Assembly: GCA_000092065.1 (NCBI GenBank)
Contig: CP000585.1
Direction: 5' to 3' (one strand)
Length of the DNA stretch: 64,000 nucleotides
DNA from: Ostreococcus lucimarinus
Lineage: Eukaryota
The notes below the pieces were generated by a model that worked only from the letters and a program-made list of their open reading frames with translations, did no database searches and had not been told where the DNA came from. Shown here piece by piece: positions 3,451 through 39,899 of this stretch. The first letter of the stretch is position 1; each line of letters begins with the position of its first letter. The position numbers were made by a program, and so were the translations under genes.

Positions 3451-4260
3451 ATGTACGCGAGTCGTTTTAGTTCAATCATTCCCACGCTTGACTTCCACCG
3501 TCGCGGTATCGTCTCGCGCGCGTCGCCACGTTCAACTGTTCCCACGCTTGACTTCCACCGTCGCGGTATCGTCTCGCGCGCGTCGCCACGGCGCGGAGGC
3601 ATCTCAGGAGTCACTTCGGCGCACCTCAACGTGCACCGGCCTAGCGGTGGCGACGATGCCATGGACCGCGTTCAGATCTCGGATCCGGACCCGTTCAGCG
3701 CGAAGGCATCGGATTACATGTCAACTCCCGCAGCCTTCGTAACGCCAGAGCTTGAACTGGGCGACCCGATCGTCAAAAAGCTTCTGCGTTCCTACTCTGG
3801 CGTTCCGGTGCTCGATAAATCGCGACACGTCATTGGAGTGCTCTCGCACAAGGACATATCGGCCGTCGAAGTGCTCGAGAAGAGCAAGGTGAAAGATGTC
3901 ATGAGCAAACCAGCACACGTCGTGACGAGTGGTGCGAATCTCGCCCAAGTCTGGGCTGAAATGCTGCAGTGGAAGGTCTGGCGGCTGCCCGTGGTCGATC
4001 CAGTGTCGAAGCAACTCGTTGGCGTATTGTGCCGCTCGGACATCCTGACTCCGATACTGAACACTGCTGAAGACATTCGTACGCACGGTGAGGAAGTCGA
4101 GCGTGAAGAACACATGGGCATGCTCAAAGACGAAAAAGACGAAGAGGATGCGTTGGCCGATGACGAAGGAAGCGCTGAATTCTTCTCGGCCGACGCCGAC
4201 GCCGACGTCGTCGACGACGCCGACGACGACAACGGCGAGCCGTACTCGCGCACCCCTTAA
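3451..4260 (+). CDS. CBS-domain pair (Bateman) protein with acidic C-terminal tail
   Basis: Two CBS-like modules are present (GVPVLDKSRHVIGVLSHKDI and LPVVDPVSKQLVGVLCRSDIL). The track ORF starts at 3358 but overlaps the M16 stop, so the Met at 3451 is a more plausible start. The N-terminal region contains a 60-bp tandem duplication. Confidence 0.6.
   Translation: MYASRFSSIIPTLDFHRRGIVSRASPRSTVPTLDFHRRGIVSRASPRRGGISGVTSAHLNVHRPSGGDDAMDRVQISDPDPFSAKASDYMSTPAAFVTPELELGDPIVKKLLRSYSGVPVLDKSRHVIGVLSHKDISAVEVLEKSKVKDVMSKPAHVVTSGANLAQVWAEMLQWKVWRLPVVDPVSKQLVGVLCRSDILTPILNTAEDIRTHGEEVEREEHMGMLKDEKDEEDALADDEGSAEFFSADADADVVDDADDDNGEPYSRTP
3478..3597 (+). repeat. Perfect 60-bp tandem duplication (2 copies) in the N-terminal coding region of the CBS protein
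   Basis: attcccacgcttgacttccaccgtcgcggtatcgtctcgcgcgcgtcgccacg... is repeated. It encodes PTLDFHRRGIVSRASPR twice. Confidence 0.8.
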
Positions 4261-15981: not shown

Positions 15982-17571
15982 TCAACCGGACGCTAAACCG
16001 TCGGTGGTGCAGTCGATGAAGCGCTCGCCGCGCTTGGCCGCGGCCTGAGCGCGGGAGGTCTCGTCGTCGACGCGCTCGCGCTCGGCCGTGCGAGGCGATT
16101 CCAAGAGCTGAGCGACGAGAGCGGAGACGCAACTCAACGCGGCGGCGACGTACAGGGCGAAGGAATAATCGCCGTACGAATCATAGAATAAACCCGCGAC
16201 GTAAGGCGCGGCGAGACCGGAGAGCCCCCAAGCGGTAAAAATGCGCCCGTAAGTGCGCGCAAAATCGCCCGCGCCGGCGACGCGGCGAACCTCCACCGGT
16301 ATGGTGCTCGCGAACATGCCGTACACGACGCCCGCGGCGGCGAGGGCGAGTTTACCGGCGAGAATGCTCGTCTTATCCATGGCAGCCCACATTAGCGGTC
16401 CAACCGCGAGAAGTGGTGTGAGCACGAGCACGCGCTTCGGCGACACTCGATCGCAAAGCCATCCGCCAAAGATGCGACCGGCGGATGTCGTAAAGGAGAC
16501 GATGGACACGCCGCCGATGATGAGCGTTTGCGCGGAAAGACCGCGAGACGACAGCAAGGTGGCGCCGTGTGACATGACCATGAGTCCAGAAAACAATCCA
16601 GTCGCCATGCACACCCACAGCACGCGTATGAGCGGTGCGAGCTTGATGTCGCGTTCCATCTCGTCGAGCATGACGTTATCCTTGTCGCGCATCTTCGCCA
16701 GCGGCGCCGCCAACCCGCACGCGCGAAAGAGAAGGAATATAGGCACGGCAGAGAACGCGATGTAATTTCCGAGCGTATTAAGAGCGTATTGCGGCCCTCC
16801 CGAAAACACCATCGCCTTCACCATCGGCGCGAACAAAAACGCCCCGAACGCGCGCGCCGACGTCACCAGCCCCGTGGCGAGCCCCGCGCTCAGGGGCGCG
16901 TACGGCGACATCTGCACCGACAGTCCGTACCCGAGTCCACTCGCGAACCCAAACATCACCCCATACCCCAAAAACAGCGGCCATACCGCCCTGAGCGGCA
17001 CCGCCAGCGCCGCCGTCCACAGCCCGCACCCCGCGAACGCCGCCGCGAACGCCGCCACGCGAGACGCCGAGTACGTCGCGTACACCCACGGCCCCGCGAA
17101 CGACATCGCGCTCACCGTGGCCACCGTGCAGAGCGAAAACACGCTCGACAGCACCGCTCGCCCCACCCCCAGCCCTTGTTCGAGCGGCACCAAGTAAATC
17201 GACCAACAAAACAGCGTCCCGAGTCCCAAGTTCAACCCGAGCGCGCCCGCGTACCCCGCCCATCGCCTCGCCGCCGTCGCGTCCTCCGCCTCGTCCTCCG
17301 CCTCGTCCTCGCCCGCGTCGAACCCGTCCCACGACGCGTTATATATCGCCCCCGCCCGTCCCGCCGCGCGCCGTCGCCCGTCGCGCGTCCGTCCCGTCGC
17401 GCTTTTCCGCGCTTTTTCCTCCCACGCCGTCGTCGCCGTCGTCGCCCGCGTCGTCGTCGCGTCCGCGCGTCGACGCCGCGCGCGCGTCGTCGTCCGCGCG
17501 CGCCGCGCCCGCGTCGTCGTCGCGCGCGCCGTCGCCGTCGCCGTCACCGTCGCGCGCGCCGTCGCCGTCAT
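15982..17571 (-). CDS. Major facilitator superfamily transporter, 529 aa, about 12 TM
   Basis: Multiple hydrophobic helices, MFS-like loop motifs, and N/C tails rich in Asp/Arg. Confidence 0.6.
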   Translation of the reverse strand: MTATARATVTATATARATTTRARRARTTTRARRRRADATTTRATTATTAWEEKARKSATGRTRDGRRRAAGRAGAIYNASWDGFDAGEDEAEDEAEDATAARRWAGYAGALGLNLGLGTLFCWSIYLVPLEQGLGVGRAVLSSVFSLCTVATVSAMSFAGPWVYATYSASRVAAFAAAFAGCGLWTAALAVPLRAVWPLFLGYGVMFGFASGLGYGLSVQMSPYAPLSAGLATGLVTSARAFGAFLFAPMVKAMVFSGGPQYALNTLGNYIAFSAVPIFLLFRACGLAAPLAKMRDKDNVMLDEMERDIKLAPLIRVLWVCMATGLFSGLMVMSHGATLLSSRGLSAQTLIIGGVSIVSFTTSAGRIFGGWLCDRVSPKRVLVLTPLLAVGPLMWAAMDKTSILAGKLALAAAGVVYGMFASTIPVEVRRVAGAGDFARTYGRIFTAWGLSGLAAPYVAGLFYDSYGDYSFALYVAAALSCVSALVAQLLESPRTAERERVDDETSRAQAAAKRGERFIDCTTDGLASG

Positions 17572-26004: not shown

Positions 26005-28476
26005 TTAATGTAAATGCCTCTGTCTGATTCTATCGCCAAACTTTATTGCGAACAGTCCGCAGAGCGTGCACGCACAAAGTAAACCAGTCAGTCCGAAAAG
26101 ATTGCGTCCAACGTGATCATATTCGACGCCAATGACATTCAAGTAAGTTGCGCCGCGTACTGGGACCTTGACTTGCTGGCCATCGAAGTCAGCATTGAAC
26201 AAGTACGGACCGCCTCGCATCTCGGAGGCAAGAATGCCTCCCCATGAGAAATAGAAAGGCGATAGGTAACGCACCCACGCACTTCCGCGGGGGAGTAATT
26301 TGACGTTTATCAAGAATCCAGCAAACACTGCATCGACGAGTAAGACGACAGTGTTGGCCAAAGTTGTGGCAGCCGTTGAAGTAGAAACAAACGTCATCGT
26401 GGCGCACTGAGCCGACTGACATAAAATAAAAAGCAGAATGAAGGCAAGAAAGGTAAAGAACGCGGTGAACGAAAGTCTAAGACCCATCAAAAAGTAGAAA
26501 ACCACAATTGCGAGACAGGCCGGTGGGATTCTCAAAAACAGCCAATCGATTGCGAGTTTGGTGAAAAAGTACAGCTCGCTTCCGTAGAACTTGGCGCGGA
26601 CTTGTCGCCTCGCAATTTCCCGTTCGTTGTTTATCCCATCGATAAGAGTCATCGCTGACAATGCAAAGTACACCAGAAGAAAGAACGTAGATCCCATTCG
26701 ATTCTGGAAGCCCTCGAGATCGTTAGTCGCGTCAGTCAGAAGACCTAAAATCAAACCGATCACGATTGGCGTAAAATAGTGCGAGACTAGCACTCTTCGC
26801 TCTCTACTGATGACCGCAAACGCACGCCACAAGAGCACGCGTGCTGTTTTTATGGCAGATGTGTACTCATCGTACATACATTCGGCGGCTGGAACTTGAA
26901 GTCTGGAGTGTTGTTTCGACGCCACCGACGATGGCTTTTCGTCGCGCGTCGCTTGTACTGCACAGATGAAACGATTCTGCTTGGCTTCATCGCATGCGAT
27001 ATCCAACAACCACTCCGCAGTGCTCACTCCAGGCGGAGCTTCCATGTCAATCATAGTCAACGTATTATCAAGCTCGGCCGGCGAACCCGTCCACAGCAAG
27101 CGGCCGTTCTGCGTGAGAACAAGAATTTTGTGAAAATTATCCAGGACACGCCTCGACGGTTGATGCACGGTTGCGACGACGACCTTTTCTTGGTGAGATG
27201 CGAGATCACGCAGGAGTGTGAATACGCGCCAGGACGTGTGTGCATCTAGTCCAGAAGTCGGCTCATCTAAGATAATCGTTGTTGGATCCACAACCAGCTC
27301 CTGCGCGATCGCAACCCTGCGCAATTCGCCTCCACTCAATGTTTGTTTCTGTGACAGCGTCCCGCCAACGCGAGAGTTGGAGACGTGTGTTAATCCGAGA
27401 GAATTTATGACATCATGAGTGCGCTCATGCAGCTCGTTCGCGTGCAAGAACCAGGGTAGTCGTAGGCTTGCTGCGACCCAGCACGTTTCGTAAACGCTTA
27501 ACTGCGCGATCATAGGCGTGTGCTGCGCAACAAACGCGAGGTTGTGTCGCTTTTCGTCCAACTCTTCTCCATTTACCAATATCGTTCCACTTTTGAGAAA
27601 GTTTCCGTGAACAAGCGCGTTCATGAGCGTCGTCTTTCCACAGCCGCTCGGTCCCAGAACGCCCACGATTTCCCCTGGGTGAAACGTCGCACTTACGTCA
27701 TCAATTATGATGCGATCATCATCCACGGAGCACGTCACGTTTTTCAGCTCTACCGTAGTAGGGTACTTATAACGTGGCACTACGTTGTGCGCAAAGATTT
27801 CACGGAGTTTCCAACGCTGCTGAGATCTAAATCTGACAAAGACGAACGCGGCCATGCCCACAACGCCAGCCACAACGCCGAGTGCGATGCCTGCAGTCGC
27901 CGCTGACTTGTCCGAAGTCTCCATCCCTCCAGTTCCATTCATAGCTTCTACCGCACCAAATGCATCCTCAATATCCGGACGAATGTACGATTCATTCGTG
28001 TTTCGAGCTTCTACCGCACCAAATTCATCCTCAATATCCGGACGAATGTACGATTCATTCGTGTTTCGAAGCCATTCCGTCGGCATCGGTGGAGCGCGAG
28101 GCGGCGGTGGCGTCGTCAAACAAGGCAAATCGTCTCGAGGACACTGCGAAACTCGAAGGAACGCCGCGATGGTCGCCCCGTTTTGTAATAGTACGTCTAG
28201 ATTCTGCACCGCACATGCGTCCAGGTCCAGTTGCGACACGTCATACCCAGCTTGCGCCAATCTCTCGCCTAAGAAGCACACGCAGCTCTCGCAGAGGTCT
28301 TCGAGCGACAGGGAGCACGCCTCGCCGAGCCCAACCAGATCAACTCGGCCAGCGTCGATCGGGCACGTGTTTTGCGCGAGAGCGATGACGAAGTGCGATG
28401 AGACGACCAGATATACGATGAGAAACTTGAAACGCATGGTTGCGGCTCGGAGTGAAGCCCGCCTCGATACCGACAT
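26005..28476 (-). CDS. ABCG (White-type, NBD-TMD) half transporter with extra N-terminal signal peptide, Cys-rich ectodomain and one TM, 823 aa
   Basis: Walker A is GPSGCGKTT, the ABC signature is LSGGELRRVAIAQELV, and Walker B is IILDEPTSGLD, followed by 6 C-terminal TM helices. The N-terminus has MRFKFLIVYLVVSSHFVIALA (signal), about 180 aa with many Cys and a duplicated 21-aa unit, then TM GIALGVVAGVVGMAAFVFV before the NBD. Confidence 0.85.
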   Translation of the reverse strand: MSVSRRASLRAATMRFKFLIVYLVVSSHFVIALAQNTCPIDAGRVDLVGLGEACSLSLEDLCESCVCFLGERLAQAGYDVSQLDLDACAVQNLDVLLQNGATIAAFLRVSQCPRDDLPCLTTPPPPRAPPMPTEWLRNTNESYIRPDIEDEFGAVEARNTNESYIRPDIEDAFGAVEAMNGTGGMETSDKSAATAGIALGVVAGVVGMAAFVFVRFRSQQRWKLREIFAHNVVPRYKYPTTVELKNVTCSVDDDRIIIDDVSATFHPGEIVGVLGPSGCGKTTLMNALVHGNFLKSGTILVNGEELDEKRHNLAFVAQHTPMIAQLSVYETCWVAASLRLPWFLHANELHERTHDVINSLGLTHVSNSRVGGTLSQKQTLSGGELRRVAIAQELVVDPTTIILDEPTSGLDAHTSWRVFTLLRDLASHQEKVVVATVHQPSRRVLDNFHKILVLTQNGRLLWTGSPAELDNTLTMIDMEAPPGVSTAEWLLDIACDEAKQNRFICAVQATRDEKPSSVASKQHSRLQVPAAECMYDEYTSAIKTARVLLWRAFAVISRERRVLVSHYFTPIVIGLILGLLTDATNDLEGFQNRMGSTFFLLVYFALSAMTLIDGINNEREIARRQVRAKFYGSELYFFTKLAIDWLFLRIPPACLAIVVFYFLMGLRLSFTAFFTFLAFILLFILCQSAQCATMTFVSTSTAATTLANTVVLLVDAVFAGFLINVKLLPRGSAWVRYLSPFYFSWGGILASEMRGGPYLFNADFDGQQVKVPVRGATYLNVIGVEYDHVGRNLFGLTGLLCACTLCGLFAIKFGDRIRQRHLH
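27943..28074 (-). repeat. 66-bp tandem duplication (2 copies) in the ABCG ectodomain coding region
   Basis: cttctaccgcaccaaat(g/t)catcctcaatatccggacgaatgtacgattcattcgtgtttcga is repeated. It encodes RNTNESYIRPDIED(E/A)FGAVEA twice. Confidence 0.75.
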
Positions 28477-28591
28477 AGTTTTGGTGACTGTCTCGGGATC
28501 GTCAGCGCGTGGCGACGAGCGTTTGAACGTCGACGATTACTATTGCAAACGACAACGCACGCGCTAAAGACTATGAACTAATTCTAAAGTG

Positions 28592-31500
28592 CTACATTTT
28601 GAATATTTTTGTGTAGTCGAATGCGAAATCGATCGGATTACCGCGCGAAATCGCGATTGGAATGTCTCCTTCTGCTTTTGCAGGAGATTTGCATCGCACG
28701 CTTCCGTCGCCGTTGAACAGCGCGTGGATGGGACCAGTGGTGCCGAATTTACACCAAACTGGAGTGTCTGGAGGGAAATAACTACTCGCAACAGTGAGTG
28801 TGGTACCACCAGCGCGAGTCCCAGCAAGTGGTGACAACGAAGAGAGCGGCATATTTTCAATCGGTTCAAAGACGATTTGAGAACCGGTCCAATCGTCCGC
28901 ATTCAAGGAGAGATCAACCACAAGGGGCGCGTCCATCAAACCGATGGAGAACGTGGGAGTCTCACATCGCATGATCGTGGAAGACACATGAACGGCACCA
29001 ACGGTATACATCCCGCCGAAGCGGCAAGATAAGCCGTCCACCGACGTTCCTGGCATCATCGGCGATCCATGTGAGGCGACAGAAACGGATTGAATCAAGT
29101 TGTCTCCGTGCACATTGATGACTGTCCCACCCCCGAAGACGCCCATCTCCGGGTATACCATGTCGATTTCTGGTGCTTCTTGGAACTCGAACTGAATCCC
29201 AATTGCAGTGTACGAAGTCCCAGCTTCGGAACTGGGCGACAGTTGCACTGGCACAAAGCCTGCGTCACTCGATGGTGTCAAGCACTTGGCCGTGCTCGAA
29301 TCGCTGATGAAACCGTTTCCATATCTCGAAAAAAACTTGCACGCTAACGAAGAGGGTACAGAAGCACTGAACGAGAATGAAATTAATGTGCCTCCTGAGT
29401 TGGGTCCGAAGAGGTTCGTGGCGGAATTGATACCACCAGTGAAGTCTGGTACAGGAGTGACTGTGGCGTCGGTGTCGCTGTCAGAACTTGCAGAGTTGAC
29501 AAATTTGCTGTAATCCAGCATGTTGTTTGACACTCTGACCGAATAAGTCTGAGGTTTAAGACCAGGAGCGACGCAATTCAAAATCGTAGCGCTCACATAA
29601 GTAGCTCGAACATGAATTTCACCAAACTTGCAAAATAAATCGCGGTTCGACACGAACCCACTTCCAGTTAACTTGACGAGCCTGCCTCCTGATTCCAGAG
29701 TTTCCAAAGCGGCGGCATTCGTCATGCTTGGCAAACTGCGGTACTTCATAACGGCTCCTGCCGAGCCCCACGAATCGGAATCGACGAAACCTGTGGATGT
29801 GTAGATGCTGGCAGTCGCATCAGAGGCGCCCGCTGGGGCCTCGAAGCGAATCAACGCCGAAGACAAAAAGCTCTGTGAAATGTATGGGTTCGTCTGTGCC
29901 ACATCGCCGAGACGAATCGACGTCATGCCCTCGACGAAGTTCACTCCTGACACGACCGCGACAGTGCCACCTCCCGTCACCGCAATGTTTGGCTGAACAG
30001 TGGCGGATGATGCGCCATCCACGTAAGCGAGCTGCGGGACATTCACAGTCAGATTTGCTCCTCCTGGGAGTTGAAGTATCGCAAAGTTGACCGAGTGAAT
30101 TTGCGTGAGGATTCCGCCTATGTTATTGGCTTCTTGACAGAGCGTGTACTGCGGCGCAGCTGGATTGCACGTCGGTACTGACGAAGGCAGGCTACCGATG
30201 TGCGCGTGCAAACGAACGAATACGTTGTCCTTCGCCGGTACGACACTCGGGATGAGCGGACTCGGTTCGAATGGCTTGAAGAACGTCAACTCTGCCTCGT
30301 ATGGATCACTTCTCGCCGATAAGGCGTGCGACAAAAACAGCATTTTATTTCCACTGACAGTCGCGGGGCTGATTGCTTCGACTTGTGCAGCGGTCACCCA
30401 GCGCAAAGCGAGAGGCGAAATCGTACCAAGTGACGCATACAGATCATACACTTGCATACCCAAATCAGTTCCGAAAATGTTCATGGCGCTACCGCCATCG
30501 AGGAATAAGCTATCCGCTTGTAAACTCGTAATAGCTGGTCGCATGATCGAGTTAAGCTCGGCTTGCCCATCTTCCGGTGTCGTACCCAATAAGCCAGCCG
30601 TCAGGCCAATTTCAATCAGGGGATCTGCGTACGGTGACTCGCAAATAATCAACGATGAACTCACAAAGTGTGCATCGATGGCGAACGTCGCGGTGAACTC
30701 GTTCTGATACCAAGGCGAGAACATGCACACTAATCCGTCCGAAATCGCATCGACCAGCATGACAGAGACTAATGTGCCGCCGCCGGTGTGAATCACCTCT
30801 GGCCCCCACGCGTCGATTGTCGGCGACGTGACATAATGGAAACTACCAGAGAACGACGTATTGGCGGCATCAGGTCCTGTGATTATGATGGGATACATTC
30901 CTTCGATGAACGAATCTCGTTCCAACGTGCATAGAATGGAGTAGATATTCGTCGTCACAGAGTAAGTACTCGTTAATGTAGTACCTCCCGTGAGGCAACC
31001 TCGTGAGGAGACGTTTTGAGCTGGATACGGCGCTTCGTAAAAGGCCTCAACGGTCGCAACTTGATCCGTCACGTGACCAGCGCGAGGAAGGACATCCTTG
31101 ATTTTCGCTGGGAAAACGTAATCAAGCGTCAAAATAGAATCCACCGACGTACCAGATGGTAACGCGGGGTTCGCAAGACTGAGCGTGAGCTCATAACGCC
31201 AGTCTCGCTTGTTCATGGAAATTTGAAGATGCACGCTCTCTTTGCTGTGAGCCGGAGAGATACACTTGAGTACTTTGGAATCGTATGCACGTGCATAAAA
31301 AGGACCAATTGTGCCGGCACGGCACCAAATAGTGGACGGCGCTGAAAGTTTATCACCACTGACGATCAATGTCGACCCCCCTTCGATAGGGGAAAACGTG
31401 GGCGAGACGGATGAAAGTAACAGCTGATCGAGCGCAGTGAAGGCAGTCGATGGCGAATGCTCATGCGTCGACGCGTAAAGCGCTTTTGTTCCTTTCGTCG

Positions 31501-33772
31501 CGAATGTGGGCGTTTCGATAATGCCGAGAGCAGAAGAAACGACGTGCGAAACGACGGCGGTACTTCCAAACATGACTCGGCTCACGTCGCCTTTGCGGAA
31601 ATTTGCGCCAGACATGAATAGAACCGTGCCACCATCCACGGGTCCAACCAGTGGATCCACACTAGTCACCGATAGAGGATCATAGTACTCAAACTGCGTT
31701 TGTGTCGAATCATATTGCGTGTATGTGGATACGATTGCATAGACTCCAACCTGTACGAAACCCGCCACTGCGCTTGCACCCCAGGAACACGTGATGGAAC
31801 CGTCGGTCGATGAGACTTGTCTTGCGGTGACGTTTAACGAGCTGCACAAGTCTGTAACGGCAGAGTCCAATCCCGCGCCGAATATTGTGTATTCAGTCGT
31901 GATATGCATTGGTCCGTGCGCTGGTATGACTGCATCGACGTTATATGGGGACTTTGCATAAGTGTACGTGACGCCTCTGTATGTTGTCGGTGTACCACCC
32001 GGGGAGGCACTCCAGTAATAATAGGTTGAAGTACCCCACACCGCTCCATTTGAAGGTATAGTCGAGTTGAACGTAAAATCGCGTCGATTTGCAGACACCT
32101 CAACTGGCACTTGTCCAGCAATATGATTAGGAACAGCGCATCGAATCTCACGACCGTGCACGTAGCTCGCTGTAACGGGGCCCAAGGTGCCAAATCTGCA
32201 TCCGAGCTCAGAGGTATCGGAGAACCCTTCACCAACCAGAGAAACGCTCATAGTACCCGTAGTGGGTCCTAAGCTCGAGCTAATGCTCGTCAGATCTATA
32301 CCATCGATATAATCAAGACCAGTCGAGGTGAAAGGGCCGATGCCGACGCCACTGGAATCTGTCCGACTGCCAAGTTGAGCTTTTATAATTGAGCCTCCAG
32401 AAGCGTGGTTCGGCGTTTGAATGACGATCAAAGCAGACGAGACAATGTTGTAGTCGACGTTCGCATCATCAACGCTGAGTTTAAGAACTTCACTCTTTAA
32501 ATCTGTGCCTGAAATCCACACTTGGCTGCCTCCTGCAGCGGGTGTGACTCGTGGGTTCAAACCAGTTATCGTCGGCACCGGTTGCACCATGACTTGATCG
32601 AAAGAAACACCTCCAACTTCGTCTATGGCTGAGACTGTAGTGAAGCCTCCAGGTAGTTGCGGCGCGATATACACGCTGACTATGGTGCTCGACATTGTCG
32701 CGTTTCCTCGACCGAATTCGACGAAGGACAAAGTAGGAACTAGCAAGTAGGACGCCGAGCTTCTCCACAAGAAGAAGTAACCGCCTTGCTTGCTAGAAAC
32801 GCCGTGATCCAAAATAACTGGCGGATCTACTGGCGCAACGTAAGTCATGGGGCTTGACGCACAGCTTTTCGATGGCGACAATGCGCTATAAACACTCGCG
32901 CATACACTCGAACTCGCCGATGAAACACCAGCCGGGGACACGCACGTCACAACCAGTGAACTGACGTACTGCGCAGCGATGGGACCAATTGAACCAAACG
33001 AACACACGGCAGAGTTGTCTATGAGAGGAATGTTCGTGCCTGTGAGCGTAACCAACGTCCCTCCAATATCACCGCTCGACGATGGCGCGATGCTCGAGAC
33101 CACCGGAGCAGCTTGTCGAGACAGTGGGTAAGCGCCATCGCCACCCTCGATGGTCAAGCGCGTCGACACTTTTGTCGTCGCGACTGACTCGCACCGGATC
33201 AAACTAGAGGAGATTATGTGTGGCGCAACCGCGCTCGTGGCGTCAAATAAACAGTGGAATTGATCGGCATCATCAGCGATAAAGTGCTGCACGGTCAACG
33301 TGAATAGCTCACCAGGCATAGTTGACGCGCCAGGAGGGGAAACGCTCAGCAATAGTGGCGTCTCTTTGATCAAATACGAAACGCTCATCGTCTGGCCGCG
33401 CGAAATCACGCTCACGGCAGTGTAACCAACGCCAACAGGGTCGAGCGTGCACGCAAACTCGGACGCCCAAGTAGAGTTGAGCGAGAGAGCGATCCCATCG
33501 CAAGATGCGCTCGCCAACCAAGCGCCGAGAATAGTCACCGACGCTGGCAACTCCGTGGCACTCAAGCTCGGTGGCAGCGTCTCGGTGATTTCAGAAGTGG
33601 ACACGTACGTTATGTCTTTGGATGTTGTCGATGATAGGCCATCGGCGTGCACCCTAAACTTCGTACTGGTGCTATCGACCAGATGAGCGGGACTCACACA
33701 GTTTGCCGCTGTGCATGCCGACAGCGGCGAAGCCTTCTTCACCGGCGGGATTCGCGCATTCAACTTCACCAA
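28592..33772 (-). CDS. Giant IPT/TIG-repeat extracellular protein, downstream ORF (1726 aa) of a split locus
   Basis: Tens of about 90-aa repeats match the IPT/TIG pattern (P.I.S..P..G...GGT.VT.TG..F......C.FG.......A......S..I.C..P). The first about 20 codons of this ORF are out-of-frame readthrough of the upstream copy, so the true N-terminus is probably not at 33772. Confidence 0.7.
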   Translation of the reverse strand: MVKLNARIPPVKKASPLSACTAANCVSPAHLVDSTSTKFRVHADGLSSTTSKDITYVSTSEITETLPPSLSATELPASVTILGAWLASASCDGIALSLNSTWASEFACTLDPVGVGYTAVSVISRGQTMSVSYLIKETPLLLSVSPPGASTMPGELFTLTVQHFIADDADQFHCLFDATSAVAPHIISSSLIRCESVATTKVSTRLTIEGGDGAYPLSRQAAPVVSSIAPSSSGDIGGTLVTLTGTNIPLIDNSAVCSFGSIGPIAAQYVSSLVVTCVSPAGVSSASSSVCASVYSALSPSKSCASSPMTYVAPVDPPVILDHGVSSKQGGYFFLWRSSASYLLVPTLSFVEFGRGNATMSSTIVSVYIAPQLPGGFTTVSAIDEVGGVSFDQVMVQPVPTITGLNPRVTPAAGGSQVWISGTDLKSEVLKLSVDDANVDYNIVSSALIVIQTPNHASGGSIIKAQLGSRTDSSGVGIGPFTSTGLDYIDGIDLTSISSSLGPTTGTMSVSLVGEGFSDTSELGCRFGTLGPVTASYVHGREIRCAVPNHIAGQVPVEVSANRRDFTFNSTIPSNGAVWGTSTYYYWSASPGGTPTTYRGVTYTYAKSPYNVDAVIPAHGPMHITTEYTIFGAGLDSAVTDLCSSLNVTARQVSSTDGSITCSWGASAVAGFVQVGVYAIVSTYTQYDSTQTQFEYYDPLSVTSVDPLVGPVDGGTVLFMSGANFRKGDVSRVMFGSTAVVSHVVSSALGIIETPTFATKGTKALYASTHEHSPSTAFTALDQLLLSSVSPTFSPIEGGSTLIVSGDKLSAPSTIWCRAGTIGPFYARAYDSKVLKCISPAHSKESVHLQISMNKRDWRYELTLSLANPALPSGTSVDSILTLDYVFPAKIKDVLPRAGHVTDQVATVEAFYEAPYPAQNVSSRGCLTGGTTLTSTYSVTTNIYSILCTLERDSFIEGMYPIIITGPDAANTSFSGSFHYVTSPTIDAWGPEVIHTGGGTLVSVMLVDAISDGLVCMFSPWYQNEFTATFAIDAHFVSSSLIICESPYADPLIEIGLTAGLLGTTPEDGQAELNSIMRPAITSLQADSLFLDGGSAMNIFGTDLGMQVYDLYASLGTISPLALRWVTAAQVEAISPATVSGNKMLFLSHALSARSDPYEAELTFFKPFEPSPLIPSVVPAKDNVFVRLHAHIGSLPSSVPTCNPAAPQYTLCQEANNIGGILTQIHSVNFAILQLPGGANLTVNVPQLAYVDGASSATVQPNIAVTGGGTVAVVSGVNFVEGMTSIRLGDVAQTNPYISQSFLSSALIRFEAPAGASDATASIYTSTGFVDSDSWGSAGAVMKYRSLPSMTNAAALETLESGGRLVKLTGSGFVSNRDLFCKFGEIHVRATYVSATILNCVAPGLKPQTYSVRVSNNMLDYSKFVNSASSDSDTDATVTPVPDFTGGINSATNLFGPNSGGTLISFSFSASVPSSLACKFFSRYGNGFISDSSTAKCLTPSSDAGFVPVQLSPSSEAGTSYTAIGIQFEFQEAPEIDMVYPEMGVFGGGTVINVHGDNLIQSVSVASHGSPMMPGTSVDGLSCRFGGMYTVGAVHVSSTIMRCETPTFSIGLMDAPLVVDLSLNADDWTGSQIVFEPIENMPLSSLSPLAGTRAGGTTLTVASSYFPPDTPVWCKFGTTGPIHALFNGDGSVRCKSPAKAEGDIPIAISRGNPIDFAFDYTKIFKM
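32965..33714 (-). repeat. Segmental repeat unit A, copy 1 (about 750 bp); copy 2 at about 34814-35563, essentially identical
   Basis: Identical translated ORFs in the track at an offset of 1849 bp (33309..33521 = 35158..35370; 33447..33686 = 35296..35535). Base-by-base agreement seen across the ends. Confidence 0.85.
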
Positions 33773-36700
33773 AGCGGCTAATCGTACCAGCTACCGCAGC
33801 ACCACTCATCACGCAATCATAGCTATCGCCTACACTGCCAGCCAAACCAAAGAGGCTGATGGCAGTACCACCAGCTAGAGGGCTTGTAGGAGGAATGATG
33901 GCGACTACGTCAACACCCGTGCTGTACACGAATGACTGCGCCGTGTCCGCGTACACATTGCCCAGGATAGCGACTTGAATATCAACCGTTTCATCGTAGT
34001 ACGACGGAGCGGTACACTCCACTTTCTTATCGTGTATAGTTCGTGCTTCGATGTACGAAACCGTACCTATGCGACAGTAGACAACGCCGCCGCCCTCAAA
34101 ACCAGTTCCCGTGACGGTGACGACGGTGCCGCCAGCCAATACTCCTCGTGTCGGACTGACACTACTCATCGTGAGTATGTCGACCACGCTCAGCGACATT
34201 ACCGTTCGACTCCACACGCCGTCGTCACTCGCGCTACCAAACCCGACTTGTGCATCCGTATTGCCGACGGCGCCCACCAAATGGGAAGCGCACTTGACCA
34301 AAGCAGATGACACGAAAGTCGCGTCTACGGCTTTGTCACCAAAGGAGCAGAGTACATTCGCCTCGTCGACAAAGTCTGAGCCTAGCATATAAACGACAGT
34401 TGGAATGAAGTTCTGGAGAACGACGGGAATCGAGCCTGACACAATTGGAGACGTGTAGTAAGCAAACGCCGCAGGTTCGCTCACGCGCTCGTCGCTTGCA
34501 AAAGTGTACGAGTAAACCTGAACGAAACCCGGTGTCGTGCTACCTGAAACGGTACATGGGTCGAGTAGAACACCACCGACTTTGCACCCTGTACCGCCGC
34601 TGTAGACAACCGACCAGACCAGGCTCAGAGATGTTGATCCGACGTTGTTCACGACAGACGGCATGACGGCGCCGAGAATGTCCGATCGCTGAAGCGCGTG
34701 TGTAGTATTGCAGCTTCTGGACGGTGATGCAGTGCTGAAAACGCTCACACAGATATTTGCCGATGAACTCACCACACCTGCAGGAGACACACACTGTACT
34801 GTCGTAGTAGTGGCGTACTGCGCAGCGATGGGACCAATTGAACCAAACGAACACACGGCAGAGTTGTCTATGAGAGGAATGTTCGTGCCTGTGAGCGTAA
34901 CCAACGTCCCTCCAATATCACCGCTCGACGATGGCGCGATGCTCGAGACCACCGGAGCAGCTTGTCGAGACAGTGGGTAAGCGCCATCGCCACCCTCGAT
35001 GGTCAAGCGCGTCGACACTTTTGTCGTCGCGACTGACTCGCACCGGATCAAACTAGAGGAGATTATGTGTGGCGCAACCGCGCTCGTGGCGTCAAATAAA
35101 CAGTGGAATTGATCGGCATCATCAGCGATAAAGTGCTGCACGGTCAACGTGAATAGCTCACCAGGCATAGTTGACGCGCCAGGAGGGGAAACGCTCAGCA
35201 ATAGTGGCGTCTCTTTGATCAAATACGAAACGCTCATCGTCTGGCCGCGCGAAATCACGCTCACGGCAGTGTAACCAACGCCAACAGGGTCGAGCGTGCA
35301 CGCAAACTCGGACGCCCAAGTAGAGTTGAGCGAGAGAGCGATCCCATCGCAAGATGCGCTCGCCAACCAAGCGCCGAGAATAGTCACCGACGCTGGCAAC
35401 TCCGTGGCACTCAAGCTCGGTGGCAGCGTCTCGGTGATTTCAGAAGTGGACACGTACGTTATGTCTTTGGATGTTGTCGATGATAGGCCATCGGCGTGCA
35501 CCCTAAACTTCGTACTGGTGCTATCGACCAGATGAGCGGGACTCACACAGTTTGCCGCTGTGCTTGATGACCACTGCGCCGAAACAAGAATCGTGCCGAA
35601 GGAACAATATAGAGTGTTGTCGTTTGGCATGTTCGAGCCCGTCACGTACACGACGCTCCCGCCCGAAATAGCAATCCCAGTCGGAGTCACAGAGCTCAGC
35701 GTGACGGCAGCGCGTGACGCAAACGTCAGCGCGTTACTCACCAAGTTGCCATTTTGCTTCACACTAGCGCTGAACACGGCTGCGGTCGAAATTGGGAGCT
35801 CTGTAACGACTAGCGCTGAGCTGACAAAGTGACTCGAAGCGCCGGCGTTAGCTTCAAGAGACAGGTATGCAGAGTCACGCATGTGTGAGCCTGAAGTGTA
35901 AATCAACGTGCCACCCGACGTTGGGCCGTTCAGAGGGTAAACAGATGATATCACCGGTGCCCGCGCGTATTCGATGGTTTGCTGATCAATCTCGTCATCG
36001 ATGATGCTCCCAATGCCGACAGCGGCGAAGCCTTCTTCACCGGCGGGATTCGCGCATTCAACTTCACCAAAGCGGCTAATCGTACCAGCTACCGCAGCAC
36101 CACTCATCACGCAATCATAGCTATCGCCTACACTGCCAGCCAAACCAAAGAGGCTGATGGCAGTACCACCAGCTAGAGGGCTTGTAGGAGGAATGATGGC
36201 GACTACGTCAACACCCGTGCTGTACACGAATGACTGCGCCGTGTCCGCGTACACATTGCCCAGGATAGCGACTTGAATATCAACCGTTTCATCGTAGTAC
36301 GACGGAGCGGTACACTCCACTTTCTTATCGTGTATAGTTCGTGCTTCGATGTACGAAACCGTACCTATGCGACAGTAGACAACGCCGCCGCCCTCAAAAC
36401 CAGTTCCCGTGACGGTGACGACGGTGCCGCCAGCCAATACTCCTCGTGTCGGACTGACACTACTCATCGTGAGTATGTCGACCACGCTCAGCGACATTAC
36501 CGTTCGACTCCACACGCCGTCGTCACTCGCGCTACCAAACCCGACTTGTGCATCCGTATTGCCGACGGCGCCCACCAAATGGGAAGCGCACTTGACCAAA
36601 GCAGATGACACGAAAGTCGCGTCTACGGCTTTGTCACCAAAGGAGCAGAGTACATTCGCCTCGTCGACAAAGTCTGAGCCTAGCATATAAACGACAGTTG

Positions 36701-38702
36701 GAATGAAGTTCTGGAGAACGACGGGAATCGAGCCTGACACAATTGGAGACGTGTAGTAAGCAAACGCCGCAGGTTCGCTCACGCGCTCGTCGCTTGCAAA
36801 AGTGTACGAGTAAACCTGAACGAAACCCGGTGTCGTGCTACCTGAAACGGTACATGGGTCGAGTAGAACACCACCGACTTTGCACCCTGTACCGCCGCTG
36901 TAGACAACCGACCAGACCAGGCTCAGAGATGTTGATCCGACGTTGTTCACGACAGATGGCATGACGGCGCCGAGAATATCGGTTGAGTCGTAAACGAACA
37001 ACTTATCACCCCAAAATGAATGCGATATACCATCGCGGCGCCCGACACCTACGGGAATACTACCTATCATGTGCGCTGGGGTGACGCACTGTACTTGTGT
37101 GGTTGAGTAATAACTTGCCAACACGGATATTGATCCATATCTACAAAGCAAGTCATCTGTATCCTTGAAATTTGCCCCACGAACTCTGACCGCAGTCCCG
37201 CCCTCGAGGCCTCCCGTGCTCGGTAAAACGGAGCTAATCTCCGCGAGTGCAGTAAAATACACGCTAGTGATTTCCACACTCGCGCTTGGTGCACTATAAA
37301 GATACTCCTCGCCTTCAGTATGCGGAGGAATCTCACATTGAATGAGAGAGGAAGATACAAAGTGAACCGGAGCGGATGCATCCGAGCCGACTCTACATAA
37401 CGATGCAGTAGAGAGGCTGATACCGCTGAGTGATATCACCGATCCTCCAGATGTGGTGACGTATGTCGGTACGGCAGAAATATTTGTCCCAGTGTACACC
37501 ACTGTAGTTTCATCGCCAACCACTTCTGTGTACGTGTCTTCGCTGTCTGCGGGATACGCAAATGTCGGGAACGTGGTGCAAGGCTTGAAAGAGTCTATAT
37601 TTGGCCCGGTCCAAAGTTCAACGCTCGTGCTCGGATGTTGCGAAGCCGGAGAGATGCACGTAACAGTCCTATTGATCGTCAACGTGTCCATCACCGCGCT
37701 TACCGTGATTGTGCCGAAATGACATGAATAACCAAACATGTTATTCGGCTCGACGAGATCTTCGTTCCCACTTCCCTGAAGCACGACGGCGACGCCTCCG
37801 TATTCAGCCTTGGTAGAATTCCACGTGGTGAAAATTTCTATCGAGCATGGCTCTCGCCAAACTTCGAATGCCCGACTACCGCTGAGAGATCCCGAGTCTC
37901 CCCAGGAACGCAAAGACGTGTCGGTCATCCCGACTGTCGAAAAAGCCGGCGTCTCGCACTTCATAAATGCACTGGAAACGACCTCTGAGGGCGCTAACCC
38001 GCTCACAGCCGGCACTGTGCCGGTACTTCCGGCCCCAAACGCGCATTTGCTCGATCCGGGCACAAAGTTTGAACCGCTCACTCGCAACACCCCGCCCCCA
38101 CCTATATCCCATCCGTACGGAAACACTTGCTCGAGCTTCACCGGCTCGTGCAGCGTAAATGTGATCCTATCGCTAGTAAAATCTAATCCATTCATCGAAA
38201 CCTCGACGTAGGCATATCCTTTACTCAACCGTAGACTCGGTGACACCGTGCACCGCACTAACGTCGAGCTGACGTGCGTGAGCGGCACCACAAAGTCCCC
38301 GACTCGACACGCCGACACGTTCGTCGAAAAGAACGACGCGCCGTGCACGTCTACGGTTAAATTATTCTGATTCAACTGCGACGAAGGCCACACTCCCCAA
38401 TCCGCGGGATCCAGCATCTCCACTCCCGCGTTCGTCGTTCGCGCCACCGACGCGACGAGCGCGACGAGCGCCCACACACCCCGTCCTCGCGCCGTCGTCG
38501 TCCTCGCCCGCCCTCGCGCTCGCCCGTTCAAACGCCGCGACGTCGTCCCCGCGCCCACCCCATCGTCGTCGACCGTTTCGATCGTCCTCGACGTCGTCCC
38601 GCGCGACGTTTCCAACGTCCACCACCGCGTCATCGCTCTTTCGCCGCCGTCCCGCGCGTCGTCGACGCTTCGCGCGCGCGTCATCGCGCTCGAATCAATC
38701 AA
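33672..38702 (-). CDS. Giant IPT/TIG-repeat extracellular protein, upstream ORF (1676 aa) of the same split locus
   Basis: Same IPT/TIG repeat architecture. An N-terminal hydrophobic segment GVWALVALVASVA could be a signal peptide or anchor. The 3' end overlaps the next ORF by 101 nt in another frame. Confidence 0.7.
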   Translation of the reverse strand: MIDSSAMTRARSVDDARDGGERAMTRWWTLETSRGTTSRTIETVDDDGVGAGTTSRRLNGRARGRARTTTARGRGVWALVALVASVARTTNAGVEMLDPADWGVWPSSQLNQNNLTVDVHGASFFSTNVSACRVGDFVVPLTHVSSTLVRCTVSPSLRLSKGYAYVEVSMNGLDFTSDRITFTLHEPVKLEQVFPYGWDIGGGGVLRVSGSNFVPGSSKCAFGAGSTGTVPAVSGLAPSEVVSSAFMKCETPAFSTVGMTDTSLRSWGDSGSLSGSRAFEVWREPCSIEIFTTWNSTKAEYGGVAVVLQGSGNEDLVEPNNMFGYSCHFGTITVSAVMDTLTINRTVTCISPASQHPSTSVELWTGPNIDSFKPCTTFPTFAYPADSEDTYTEVVGDETTVVYTGTNISAVPTYVTTSGGSVISLSGISLSTASLCRVGSDASAPVHFVSSSLIQCEIPPHTEGEEYLYSAPSASVEITSVYFTALAEISSVLPSTGGLEGGTAVRVRGANFKDTDDLLCRYGSISVLASYYSTTQVQCVTPAHMIGSIPVGVGRRDGISHSFWGDKLFVYDSTDILGAVMPSVVNNVGSTSLSLVWSVVYSGGTGCKVGGVLLDPCTVSGSTTPGFVQVYSYTFASDERVSEPAAFAYYTSPIVSGSIPVVLQNFIPTVVYMLGSDFVDEANVLCSFGDKAVDATFVSSALVKCASHLVGAVGNTDAQVGFGSASDDGVWSRTVMSLSVVDILTMSSVSPTRGVLAGGTVVTVTGTGFEGGGVVYCRIGTVSYIEARTIHDKKVECTAPSYYDETVDIQVAILGNVYADTAQSFVYSTGVDVVAIIPPTSPLAGGTAISLFGLAGSVGDSYDCVMSGAAVAGTISRFGEVECANPAGEEGFAAVGIGSIIDDEIDQQTIEYARAPVISSVYPLNGPTSGGTLIYTSGSHMRDSAYLSLEANAGASSHFVSSALVVTELPISTAAVFSASVKQNGNLVSNALTFASRAAVTLSSVTPTGIAISGGSVVYVTGSNMPNDNTLYCSFGTILVSAQWSSSTAANCVSPAHLVDSTSTKFRVHADGLSSTTSKDITYVSTSEITETLPPSLSATELPASVTILGAWLASASCDGIALSLNSTWASEFACTLDPVGVGYTAVSVISRGQTMSVSYLIKETPLLLSVSPPGASTMPGELFTLTVQHFIADDADQFHCLFDATSAVAPHIISSSLIRCESVATTKVSTRLTIEGGDGAYPLSRQAAPVVSSIAPSSSGDIGGTLVTLTGTNIPLIDNSAVCSFGSIGPIAAQYATTTTVQCVSPAGVVSSSANICVSVFSTASPSRSCNTTHALQRSDILGAVMPSVVNNVGSTSLSLVWSVVYSGGTGCKVGGVLLDPCTVSGSTTPGFVQVYSYTFASDERVSEPAAFAYYTSPIVSGSIPVVLQNFIPTVVYMLGSDFVDEANVLCSFGDKAVDATFVSSALVKCASHLVGAVGNTDAQVGFGSASDDGVWSRTVMSLSVVDILTMSSVSPTRGVLAGGTVVTVTGTGFEGGGVVYCRIGTVSYIEARTIHDKKVECTAPSYYDETVDIQVAILGNVYADTAQSFVYSTGVDVVAIIPPTSPLAGGTAISLFGLAGSVGDSYDCVMSGAAVAGTISRFGEVECANPAGEEGFAAVGMHSGKLCESRSSGR
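33715..34690 (-). repeat. Segmental repeat unit B, copy 1 (about 975 bp); copy 2 at about 36013-36988, near-identical with at least one SNP
   Basis: Identical translated ORFs at an offset of 2298 bp (33975..34310 = 36273..36608; 34111..34392 = 36409..36690). ORFs 34445..34666 and 36743..36964 differ by one residue (T/M). Confidence 0.85.
34814..35563 (-). repeat. Segmental repeat unit A, copy 2
   Basis: See copy 1; offset 1849 bp. Confidence 0.85.
36013..36988 (-). repeat. Segmental repeat unit B, copy 2
   Basis: See copy 1; offset 2298 bp. Confidence 0.85.
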
Positions 38703-39017
38703 TCGCGCCTTCGCGTCGTCGTCGCGTCTCCGCTCGCGTCTCCGCGCGTCGTCGCGCGTCGTCGCGCGTCGCGGCGTTCATCGGCGTTTCGTTCGCGCGT
38801 CGCGCGTCGCCGCGTCGTCGTCGACGCGCTCGTCGCGCTCGCGCGCGCGCGTCTGGTCGCGCGCGTCGCCCCGCGGCTCGCAAACGGCCGGACGATCGCG
38901 CGGTGCGCGAGGTGCGCACACGAGGACGGGATTCGATAGTTTGCGATGACACGAACGATGGATGGATGCGGCGCGGTGCGATTCGCGACGCGCGAGACGG
39001 CGACGCGCGGTTGAGCG

Positions 39018-39899
39018 ATGTCGAACGGCGATGACGACGACGCGCGCGCGAACGACGGCGCGGACGACGCGAAGGCGACGGGAGACGCGACGGGAGACGC
39101 GAACGCCGGCGACGGGGACAATCGGCGGACGGCGCGAGACGGCGCGCGAGCGACGCGCGAGGGCGACGACGGCGAGGACGCGCGACCGCGAGGGAAGAGG
39201 CCGGACATCTCGAACTTGGTGTCGGTGAAGATCGATAACGTGTCGTACGAGCTGCGGGAGGAGGATCTGCGCGAGGCGTTCGAGAAGTTTGGGGACGTCG
39301 GGGACGTGTACATTCCGAAGGAGCGCGGGAGCTATCGCGCGCGGGGGTTCGCGTTCGTGAGGTATCACTCGAGAGAACACGCGGAGGCGGCGGTGAGCGC
39401 GATGCACGAGACGGAGTTGGGCGGGAGACACATTCGAGCCGCCATCGCGGAGCGTGGACGCCCGGAGGGAGGGTACCAAGCGAACAATAACCGCGGTAGA
39501 TACGAAGCCAGACGGCCGTACGACGACGATCGAAGAAGGGACGATTACAGAGACCGTCGCAGAGACAGCGACGGGTACCGCAGAGACGATTATCGCAGAG
39601 ACGATTATCGCAGAGACGATTATCGCAGAGACGATTATCGCAGAGATGATTATCGCAGAGACGACTACAGAGACCGTCGCGACGACTACAGAGACCGTCG
39701 CGACGACTACAGAGATCGACGCGACGATTACAGAGATCGACGACGAGACGATTACAGAGACCGACGAGACGATAGCAGACGGAGCGGTTACTCGGGTCAC
39801 GATGACCGACGTGGCTACGACGACCATCGAGGACGTGACGATAGATACGACGGGCGTCGGGACTCTCGCTCGGCTCCGCCGCCGCCGTCGCGCGAATGA
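39018..39899 (+). CDS. SR-family splicing factor, SRSF2 (SC35)-like RRM protein with RD/RDDY-repeat tail, 293 aa
   Basis: The RRM PDISNLVSVKIDNVSYELREEDLREAFEKFGDVGDVYIPKERGSYRARGFAFVRYHSREHAEAAVSAMHETELGGRHIRAAIAERGRP is collinear with SRSF2 ([37 protein letters not shown]...[23 protein letters not shown]). The C-terminus has (RDDYR)n repeats in place of a classic RS domain. Confidence 0.8.
   Translation: MSNGDDDDARANDGADDAKATGDATGDANAGDGDNRRTARDGARATREGDDGEDARPRGKRPDISNLVSVKIDNVSYELREEDLREAFEKFGDVGDVYIPKERGSYRARGFAFVRYHSREHAEAAVSAMHETELGGRHIRAAIAERGRPEGGYQANNNRGRYEARRPYDDDRRRDDYRDRRRDSDGYRRDDYRRDDYRRDDYRRDDYRRDDYRRDDYRDRRDDYRDRRDDYRDRRDDYRDRRRDDYRDRRDDSRRSGYSGHDDRRGYDDHRGRDDRYDGRRDSRSAPPPPSRE
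39560..39800 (+). repeat. Coding minisatellite of 15/18/21-bp periodic units (gacgattatcgcagagac, cgcgacgactacagagaccgt) encoding DYRRD repeats
   Basis: Visible head-to-tail repetition across 39588-39790. Confidence 0.75.

Follow-up and report, generated by a model that had tools for sequence, protein, structure and literature searches.

When a reading frame breaks inside an almost perfect repeat, has one gene become two, has a gene been lost, or is the sequence at fault? This question is raised by a 64,000-nucleotide (nt) stretch of the Ostreococcus lucimarinus CCE9901 reference genome (contig CP000585.1; hereafter the window), which was identified by exact protein matches to O. lucimarinus CCE9901. 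Two large open reading frames (ORFs) on its minus strand, both built of IPT/TIG repeats, overlap by 101 nt at the point where two repeat segments abut and the frame changes. A preliminary description, made from the sequence of the window, had proposed either a single, essentially contemporary tandem duplication with deletion or an assembly error. We consider it very probable that the locus is one TIG gene with natural one-copy and two-copy alleles, that the copies are homogenised, and that the reference holds the duplicated allele minus 449 base pairs (bp), lost by mutation or by error.

One TIG gene annotated as two

Both ORFs encode IPT/TIG repeat proteins, as in each of them a profile search gave multiple significant PF01833 matches above the gathering score. 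The E-values were 2e-84 for the upstream ORF (278 bits, 9 stretches) and 2.5e-78 for the downstream ORF (258.5 bits, 9 stretches). The same profile gave 560.5 bits over 20 stretches in the intact allele of 3513 amino acids (aa) described below and 154 bits over 5 stretches in the 766-aa unit that is duplicated. In the annotation the upstream ORF is represented from Met-96 by XP_001418053.1 (33672-38417, 1581 aa, exact match), which ends in the frameshift tail ...GFAAVGMHSGKLCESRSSGR, and the downstream ORF from residue 11 by XP_001418052.1 (28592-33742, 1716 aa), labelled 'predicted protein, partial'. The first Met of the downstream ORF is at codon 129 and there is no sign of a start of its own. 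These two models are halves of one gene. Its real start is likely the ATG at 38684 (M7) rather than Met-96 (38417); the earlier start adds an Arg-rich N-region and a signal-like hydrophobic segment, VWALVALVASVA, and is the one taken by gene callers on other contigs, giving 3513 aa. The annotated start of XP_001418053.1 leaves out the only signal-peptide-like hydrophobic segment.

The repeat anatomy was determined by self-BLAST and base-by-base comparison, with coordinates on the plus strand (Table 1). Segments A and B are present twice and U once, and B1 directly abuts A1, in agreement with the preliminary description. Its statement that the A copies are identical and the B copies differ at no more than one or two positions also held: A1 and A2 match over 753 bp with a single mismatch (32964/34813) and are perfect for 750 bp from 32965/34814, and B1 and B2 match over 965 bp with a single mismatch (34659/36957). 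Identity of 99.9% over 750–965 bp is far beyond chance. The start-to-start distances of 1849 bp for the A copies and 2298 bp for the B copies equal the offsets that had been read from repeated small ORFs, and self-BLAST found no further repeats of the A/B kind in 28000-39500. The linker S, which had been put at 123 bp, is longer (131–134 bp). U encodes one TIG domain and the beginning of the next, while S encodes the C-terminal half of a TIG domain (TTTTVQCVSPAGVVSSSANICVSVFSTASPSRSCNTTHALQRS).

Read along the upstream ORF, B2, U, A2, S and B1 follow each other in one frame, after which A1 is entered out of register. Since 449 is 2 mod 3, the absence of U puts A1 out of frame at B1|A1, and it is because of this break that the annotation shows two genes. 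The stop at 33672, the downstream start at 33772 and the 101-nt overlap were described correctly. The out-of-frame stretches, given as 20 codons each, are shorter: the upstream ORF runs past the junction for 14 codons and a stop (MHSGKLCESRSSGR*), and about 19 codons at the head of the downstream ORF are B1 sequence read out of frame.

Table 1. Positions of the two ORFs, the repeat segments and the deletion junction in the window
Feature	Coordinates	Strand	Remarks
Upstream ORF (N-terminal piece of the giant TIG gene)	33672-38702	-	1676 aa; ends in frameshift tail
Downstream ORF (C-terminal piece of the giant TIG gene)	28592-33772	-	1726 aa
B2 (first part, upstream copy 2)	36013-36977	-	matches B1; begins at TIG domain boundary (D|ILGAVMPS)
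U (449-bp coding segment)	35564-36012	-	in the window only between A2 and B2
A2 (last part, copy 2)	34811-35563	-	matches A1
S (linker, copy 2 to copy 1)	34680-34813	-	131-134 bp; single occurrence; in frame
B1 (first part, downstream copy 1)	33715-34679	-	matches B2
A1 (last part, copy 1)	32962-33714	-	matches A2; joined directly to B1
Deletion junction	33714|33715 (region 33705-33728)	.	A1 abuts B1

A split that serves a function, with the ORFs joined by an intron or by programmed frameshifting or encoding two proteins by design, is extremely unlikely. In a eukaryote the frame could in principle be restored by splicing, if an intron of length 1 mod 3 spanned the 101-nt overlap, but the annotators modelled none, in copy 2 the same sequences are coding without a break, and all relatives have an uninterrupted frame that includes U. 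Moreover, the split arrangement is not conserved in any other contig. U itself was also considered as an intron or mobile insertion, which is ruled out by the lack of GT-AG at the fixed boundaries, by its open TIG-coding frame and by its presence in O. tauri and all other orthologues.

Intact two-copy and single-copy alleles

The duplicated allele, with S and a complete second B-U-A, is found in 12 other O. lucimarinus contigs. Nine of these (L004-L009 and L011-L013) were fetched via the neighbouring ABCG protein and comprise ENA scaffolds (two Tara Oceans samples among them) and 835–841 kb JGI contigs, on which gene calling gave a single TIG product of up to 3513 aa; three further JGI contigs (Ga0228649_1000003, Ga0181595_10000186 and Ga0257114_1000394) were found via the normal U|B junction. 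In the nine ABCG-fetched contigs the match to the window is perfect between 37988 and 33715 (P, B2, U, A2, S, B1), is followed by 449 additional bases and resumes at 33714, confirming that a deletion of this length at B1|A1 shifts the frame, as first suggested. The duplicated-allele contigs have a single open frame over all 9846 nt examined. With U re-inserted after B1, the window shows no difference from L004 over 21,111 nt or from L013 over 15,255 nt, and the lack of U at 33714|33715 is the sole difference between the window and L004 within the gene. The predicted 3513-aa product with its start at ATG 38684 is on record (P0114), as is the 3424-aa version from Met-96, which heads a protein cluster (P0116).

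In layout letters the duplicated allele is P-B-U-A-S-B-U-A-R and the single-copy allele P-B-U-A-R. A continuous single-copy ORF without S is present in four metagenome contigs, with nucleotide identities to the window of 99.3–99.8% for L001 and L002, 99.4% for L018 and 95% for L003, which belongs to a sister lineage. A single-copy protein of 2658 aa from the annotated Met is on record (P0130), exactly 3424 minus 766. The O. tauri orthologue ('Immunoglobulin-like fold') is a single protein of 2680 aa, and orthologues in other Ostreococcus lineages are single proteins of 2662–2720 aa that have B, U and A once, followed by the sequence of the downstream ORF. These single, continuous orthologues bear out the earlier proposal that both ORFs derive from a single ancestral giant TIG gene. 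Its length had been taken as about 3,400 codons; the ancestral single-copy gene has about 2,660–2,750 and the intact duplicated gene 3513–3519.

Thus, the duplication is a natural, in-frame, polymorphic allele of O. lucimarinus that exists beside a single-copy allele. That it is intragenic and in tandem, as had been proposed, is upheld by the single frame, the 2298-bp period and independent assemblies from ENA, Tara and JGI. The unit of 2298 bp (3 x 766 aa) is repeated head-to-tail in frame and contains a whole number of TIG domains, because it begins where a TIG domain begins (D|ILGAVMPS) and its last domain receives the C-terminal half from S. The duplication adds exactly 766 aa and keeps the frame, yielding 3513 aa from the first Met, and single-copy alleles can re-arise through recombination between the copies.

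The assembly collapse or misjoin raised in the preliminary description is refuted for the duplication itself. Single-copy alleles do exist in the species, and perfect 2.2-kb repeats are hard for Sanger assembly, so that the whole duplicated structure might be an artefact and the true CCE9901 locus single-copy. This is highly improbable, as the 131-bp in-frame S and full second copies recur in many independent assemblies otherwise identical to the window, and S cannot be assembler-made. By itself, a protein homology search would have led to the wrong conclusion that no intact duplicated allele exists: neither P0116 nor P0114 was returned despite 100% identity and the best match listed was at 85%, indicating that the index misses this cluster. 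An A-S-B peptide used as query likewise gave no match in this search, although its sequence is in cluster P0116.

The variation within the duplicated alleles bears on the age of the duplication. In contig Ga0257114_1000394 (L019 + L017) the duplication has the same S, with 1 difference, and lies on a haplotype that differs from the window unit at 13 sites per 2167 bp. All of these variants (13/13) are in both copies, the two copies within this contig differ at 1 site, and the single-copy contig L018 carries the same 13 variants; one haplotype background occurs both with one copy and with two. At unit site 1715 the copies agree with each other in L005, L007 and L008 as well, and copy-specific differences are limited to unit sites 2 and 23, at the edge of S. 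As S is not derivable from a single-copy allele, the duplication has one origin, and one origin combined with polymorphisms present in both copies implies that the copies are homogenised. From this pattern we infer that gene conversion or unequal exchange keeps the two 2167-bp copies nearly identical. Identity maintained by such a process does not date the duplication, and the occurrence of the same S on haplotypes that differ at 13 sites means that the duplication predates those haplotypes.

These data bear directly on the proposal of one very recent event, in which tandem duplication and deletion together split a gene of about 3,400 codons and left the species with a nascent pseudogene or with two new genes. 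The 99.9–100% identity of the copies, the frameshift at B1|A1 and the two gene models in the reference annotation are all consistent with it. We nevertheless regard it as very unlikely. The duplication without the deletion is the intact allele of the 12 other contigs, which separates the two changes. The shared S and the 13 haplotype variants in both copies make the duplication older than an 'essentially contemporary' event, with copy identity probably maintained by gene conversion. The B1|A1 junction was not found elsewhere, and the downstream piece has no Met before codon 129 and shows no start of its own.

Origin of the deletion and of the linker

The deletion is private to the CCE9901 reference sequence. 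A 40-mer across the B1|A1 junction, CACACAGTTTGCCGCTGTGC|ATGCCGACAGCGGCGAAGCC, has 0 matches in JGI metagenome contigs, while the normal U|B 40-mer is present in 5 of them, 8 times in all. The only contig on which the frameshifted product is recorded is the 847,696-bp CCE9901 reference chromosome, and an exact look-up of this product with other start codons, including M7, found none on record. The deletion junction was not found in any other contig. Leaving the deletion aside, just three positions, 16087, 16609 and 17326, separate the reference from at least 7 other contigs. They lie within 1.3 kb in a stretch of 69% G+C in an MFS transporter gene and are private single-nucleotide polymorphisms or Sanger errors; a short indel polymorphism of CG/ACG type is present nearby, at ~17520-17526.

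Base-by-base comparison found no microhomology at the B1|A1 breakpoints. An 8-bp inverted repeat brackets the junction, with the arms GCCGCTGT (33705-33712) and ACAGCGGC (33721-33728), and the same arms flank U in copy 2 (35554-35561 and 36019-36026). Among control breakpoint pairs in the gene, an inverted repeat of at least 8 bp was present at just 9 of 9500. In the DNA fold of the U region the ends are unpaired and the segment is not unusually structured (z = 0.57). Hairpin extrusion of U was left as an unexplained detail, as the inverted repeat is present but the fold does not pair the ends.

As to how the 449 bp were lost, we lean slightly towards a deleted clone or a finishing error that was not noticed. 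Such an error would go unseen because U reads from both identical copies could pile onto copy 2. The lesion lies inside a perfect repeat, its junction is otherwise unseen, and the near-identity of the reference to wild haplotypes leaves little time for private structural mutations, all of which favour an error. A real mutation of the sequenced culture has somewhat less than an even chance. In its favour, a junction with no overlap calls for a physical molecule, and long-cultured strains do lose large dispensable genes. A mutation here would leave a truncated N-terminal product of 1663 aa with 14 junk codons, the 3' half being untranslated. Were the deletion real, the strain that serves as the standard laboratory host of OlV viruses would be without the C-terminal half of a protein that is among its largest extracellular ones. 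Our literature search found no description of this TIG gene or of a CCE9901 re-assembly.

Several points weigh against the account given here or limit its reach. Contigs L004-L013 were selected by an ABCG sequence identical to that of the window and are a biased sample, uninformative on allele frequencies, and some of the short-read single-copy contigs could in principle be collapsed loops. A junction without overlap is not assembler-made, so at least one molecule, genomic or cloned, had it, and the 8-bp inverted repeat hints at a molecular origin of the junction, in the alga or in a clone, rather than a software one. Public sets of CCE9901 reads are SRR847306 (bisulfite-seq), SRR847307 (paired-end MNase-seq) and SRR847308 (RNA-seq). 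An exact look-up of predicted Logan unitig products (714, 169, 314, 249 and 71 aa) gave no match, and the controls were also without match. Finally, S is just 65% identical to its expected template, and for this reason a simple recent within-species duplication does not account for it.

S is the diagnostic marker of the duplication and is absent from single-copy alleles. Its closest protein-level homologue is the segment after A, and no nucleotide-level source was found in the window or in single-copy loci. Compared with the segment after A1 it is a diverged homologue (65% nt and ~56% aa identity), and it is closer to the counterpart of that segment in another Ostreococcus species (72% nt, 68% aa), to which the segment after A1 is 59% identical at the nt level. 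S could stem from an ancient duplication, have been imported from another lineage or have diverged rapidly. The divergence of S hints that the duplication may be much older than it appears. Because S is as diverged from the parental segment as orthologues are between Ostreococcus species, the duplication could be ancient rather than recent. The gene would then be a long-lived 'accordion' in which a 766-aa TIG block is again and again homogenised, lost and possibly regained, and the CCE9901 lesion a genuine loss of function in the standard strain used as virus host. We think this improbable; the length of the giant extracellular protein would under it be tuned, possibly through selection exerted by prasinovirus attachment or cell-cell recognition.

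The protein, comparable systems and neighbouring sequence

In the account that we prefer, the locus is one gene for a giant IPT/TIG-repeat protein, probably secreted, and the CCE9901 reference holds its duplicated allele minus the 449 bp of U in the downstream copy. The intact protein has an Arg-rich N-terminus followed by the short hydrophobic segment and at least 20 TIG domains, is rich in Ser, Thr, Val and Gly, and has Cys in a conserved C.SP motif. Hydropathy gave no transmembrane helix, and no sema, kinase or PbH1 modules were detected. These features suggest a secreted or surface-associated rod of Ig-like domains, with a length that would vary by a block of about eight domains. The TIG array, signal-like N-terminus and C.SP Cys resemble those of extracellular IPT/TIG proteins such as plexin and Met with their IPT domains or the TIG arrays of fibrocystin type; the product of this gene differs from them in that no sema, kinase, PbH1 or transmembrane module was detected in it. 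In the homology search the family was limited, at useful identity, to Mamiellales-type relatives.

Copy-number variation of intragenic repeats with concerted evolution is known from kringle IV-2 of human LPA, variable number tandem repeats of mucins, the FLO and ALS adhesins of yeasts and bacterial adhesins with Ig-like repeats. The TIG gene is like these systems in having a large in-frame, head-to-tail unit of whole domains, alleles of different unit number in one species, copies homogenised per haplotype and easy collapse through recombination between copies. It differs from them in that just one or two copies are seen, of a 2298-bp unit with about eight TIG domains, and in that the junction carries the diverged linker S and not a copy of the parental flank. 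At the level of annotation the locus is also like the 'split genes' that frameshifts create in reference genomes, either as pseudogenes of a strain or as sequencing or finishing errors, with adjacent same-strand models, one of them 'partial', an out-of-frame overlap and a single continuous orthologue in all relatives. Here, however, the lesion is a 449-bp deletion and not a homopolymer slip, and it lies inside a perfect-repeat copy, where read placement cannot expose it.

The phenomenon is of a well-known kind; it matters chiefly for curation and is of modest evolutionary interest for the old-looking linker and the concerted evolution. Every other available sequence of the gene encodes a single protein of 3513 aa (or 2658 aa), and the error or mutation in the reference is passed on to orthology tables, proteomics databases and metagenome read-recruitment at this locus. 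The locus is also a clean example from nature of a domain block that varies in copy number and whose copies evolve in concert, in a picoeukaryote whose genome is tiny and gene-dense.

The window is part of a compact eukaryotic genome, and the genes around the TIG gene are eukaryotic, encoding a PHD-finger protein, an importin-like protein, NAT10, an ABCG transporter, phytoene synthase and MutS2. The ABCG gene (26005-28476, minus strand), which adjoins the TIG gene, has a perfect tandem repeat of 63 bp (21 aa) in its N-terminal region (27943-28069). This repeat is a second, small in-frame copy-number polymorphism, with 2 copies in the window and window-like contigs and 1 copy in L002, L014 and L017. 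Directly upstream of the TIG gene, at 38711-39194, are degenerate CG-rich short tandem repeats with periods of 10–33 bp and 63% G+C, and over the window as a whole G+C swings between 50% and 72% on a 2-kb scale.

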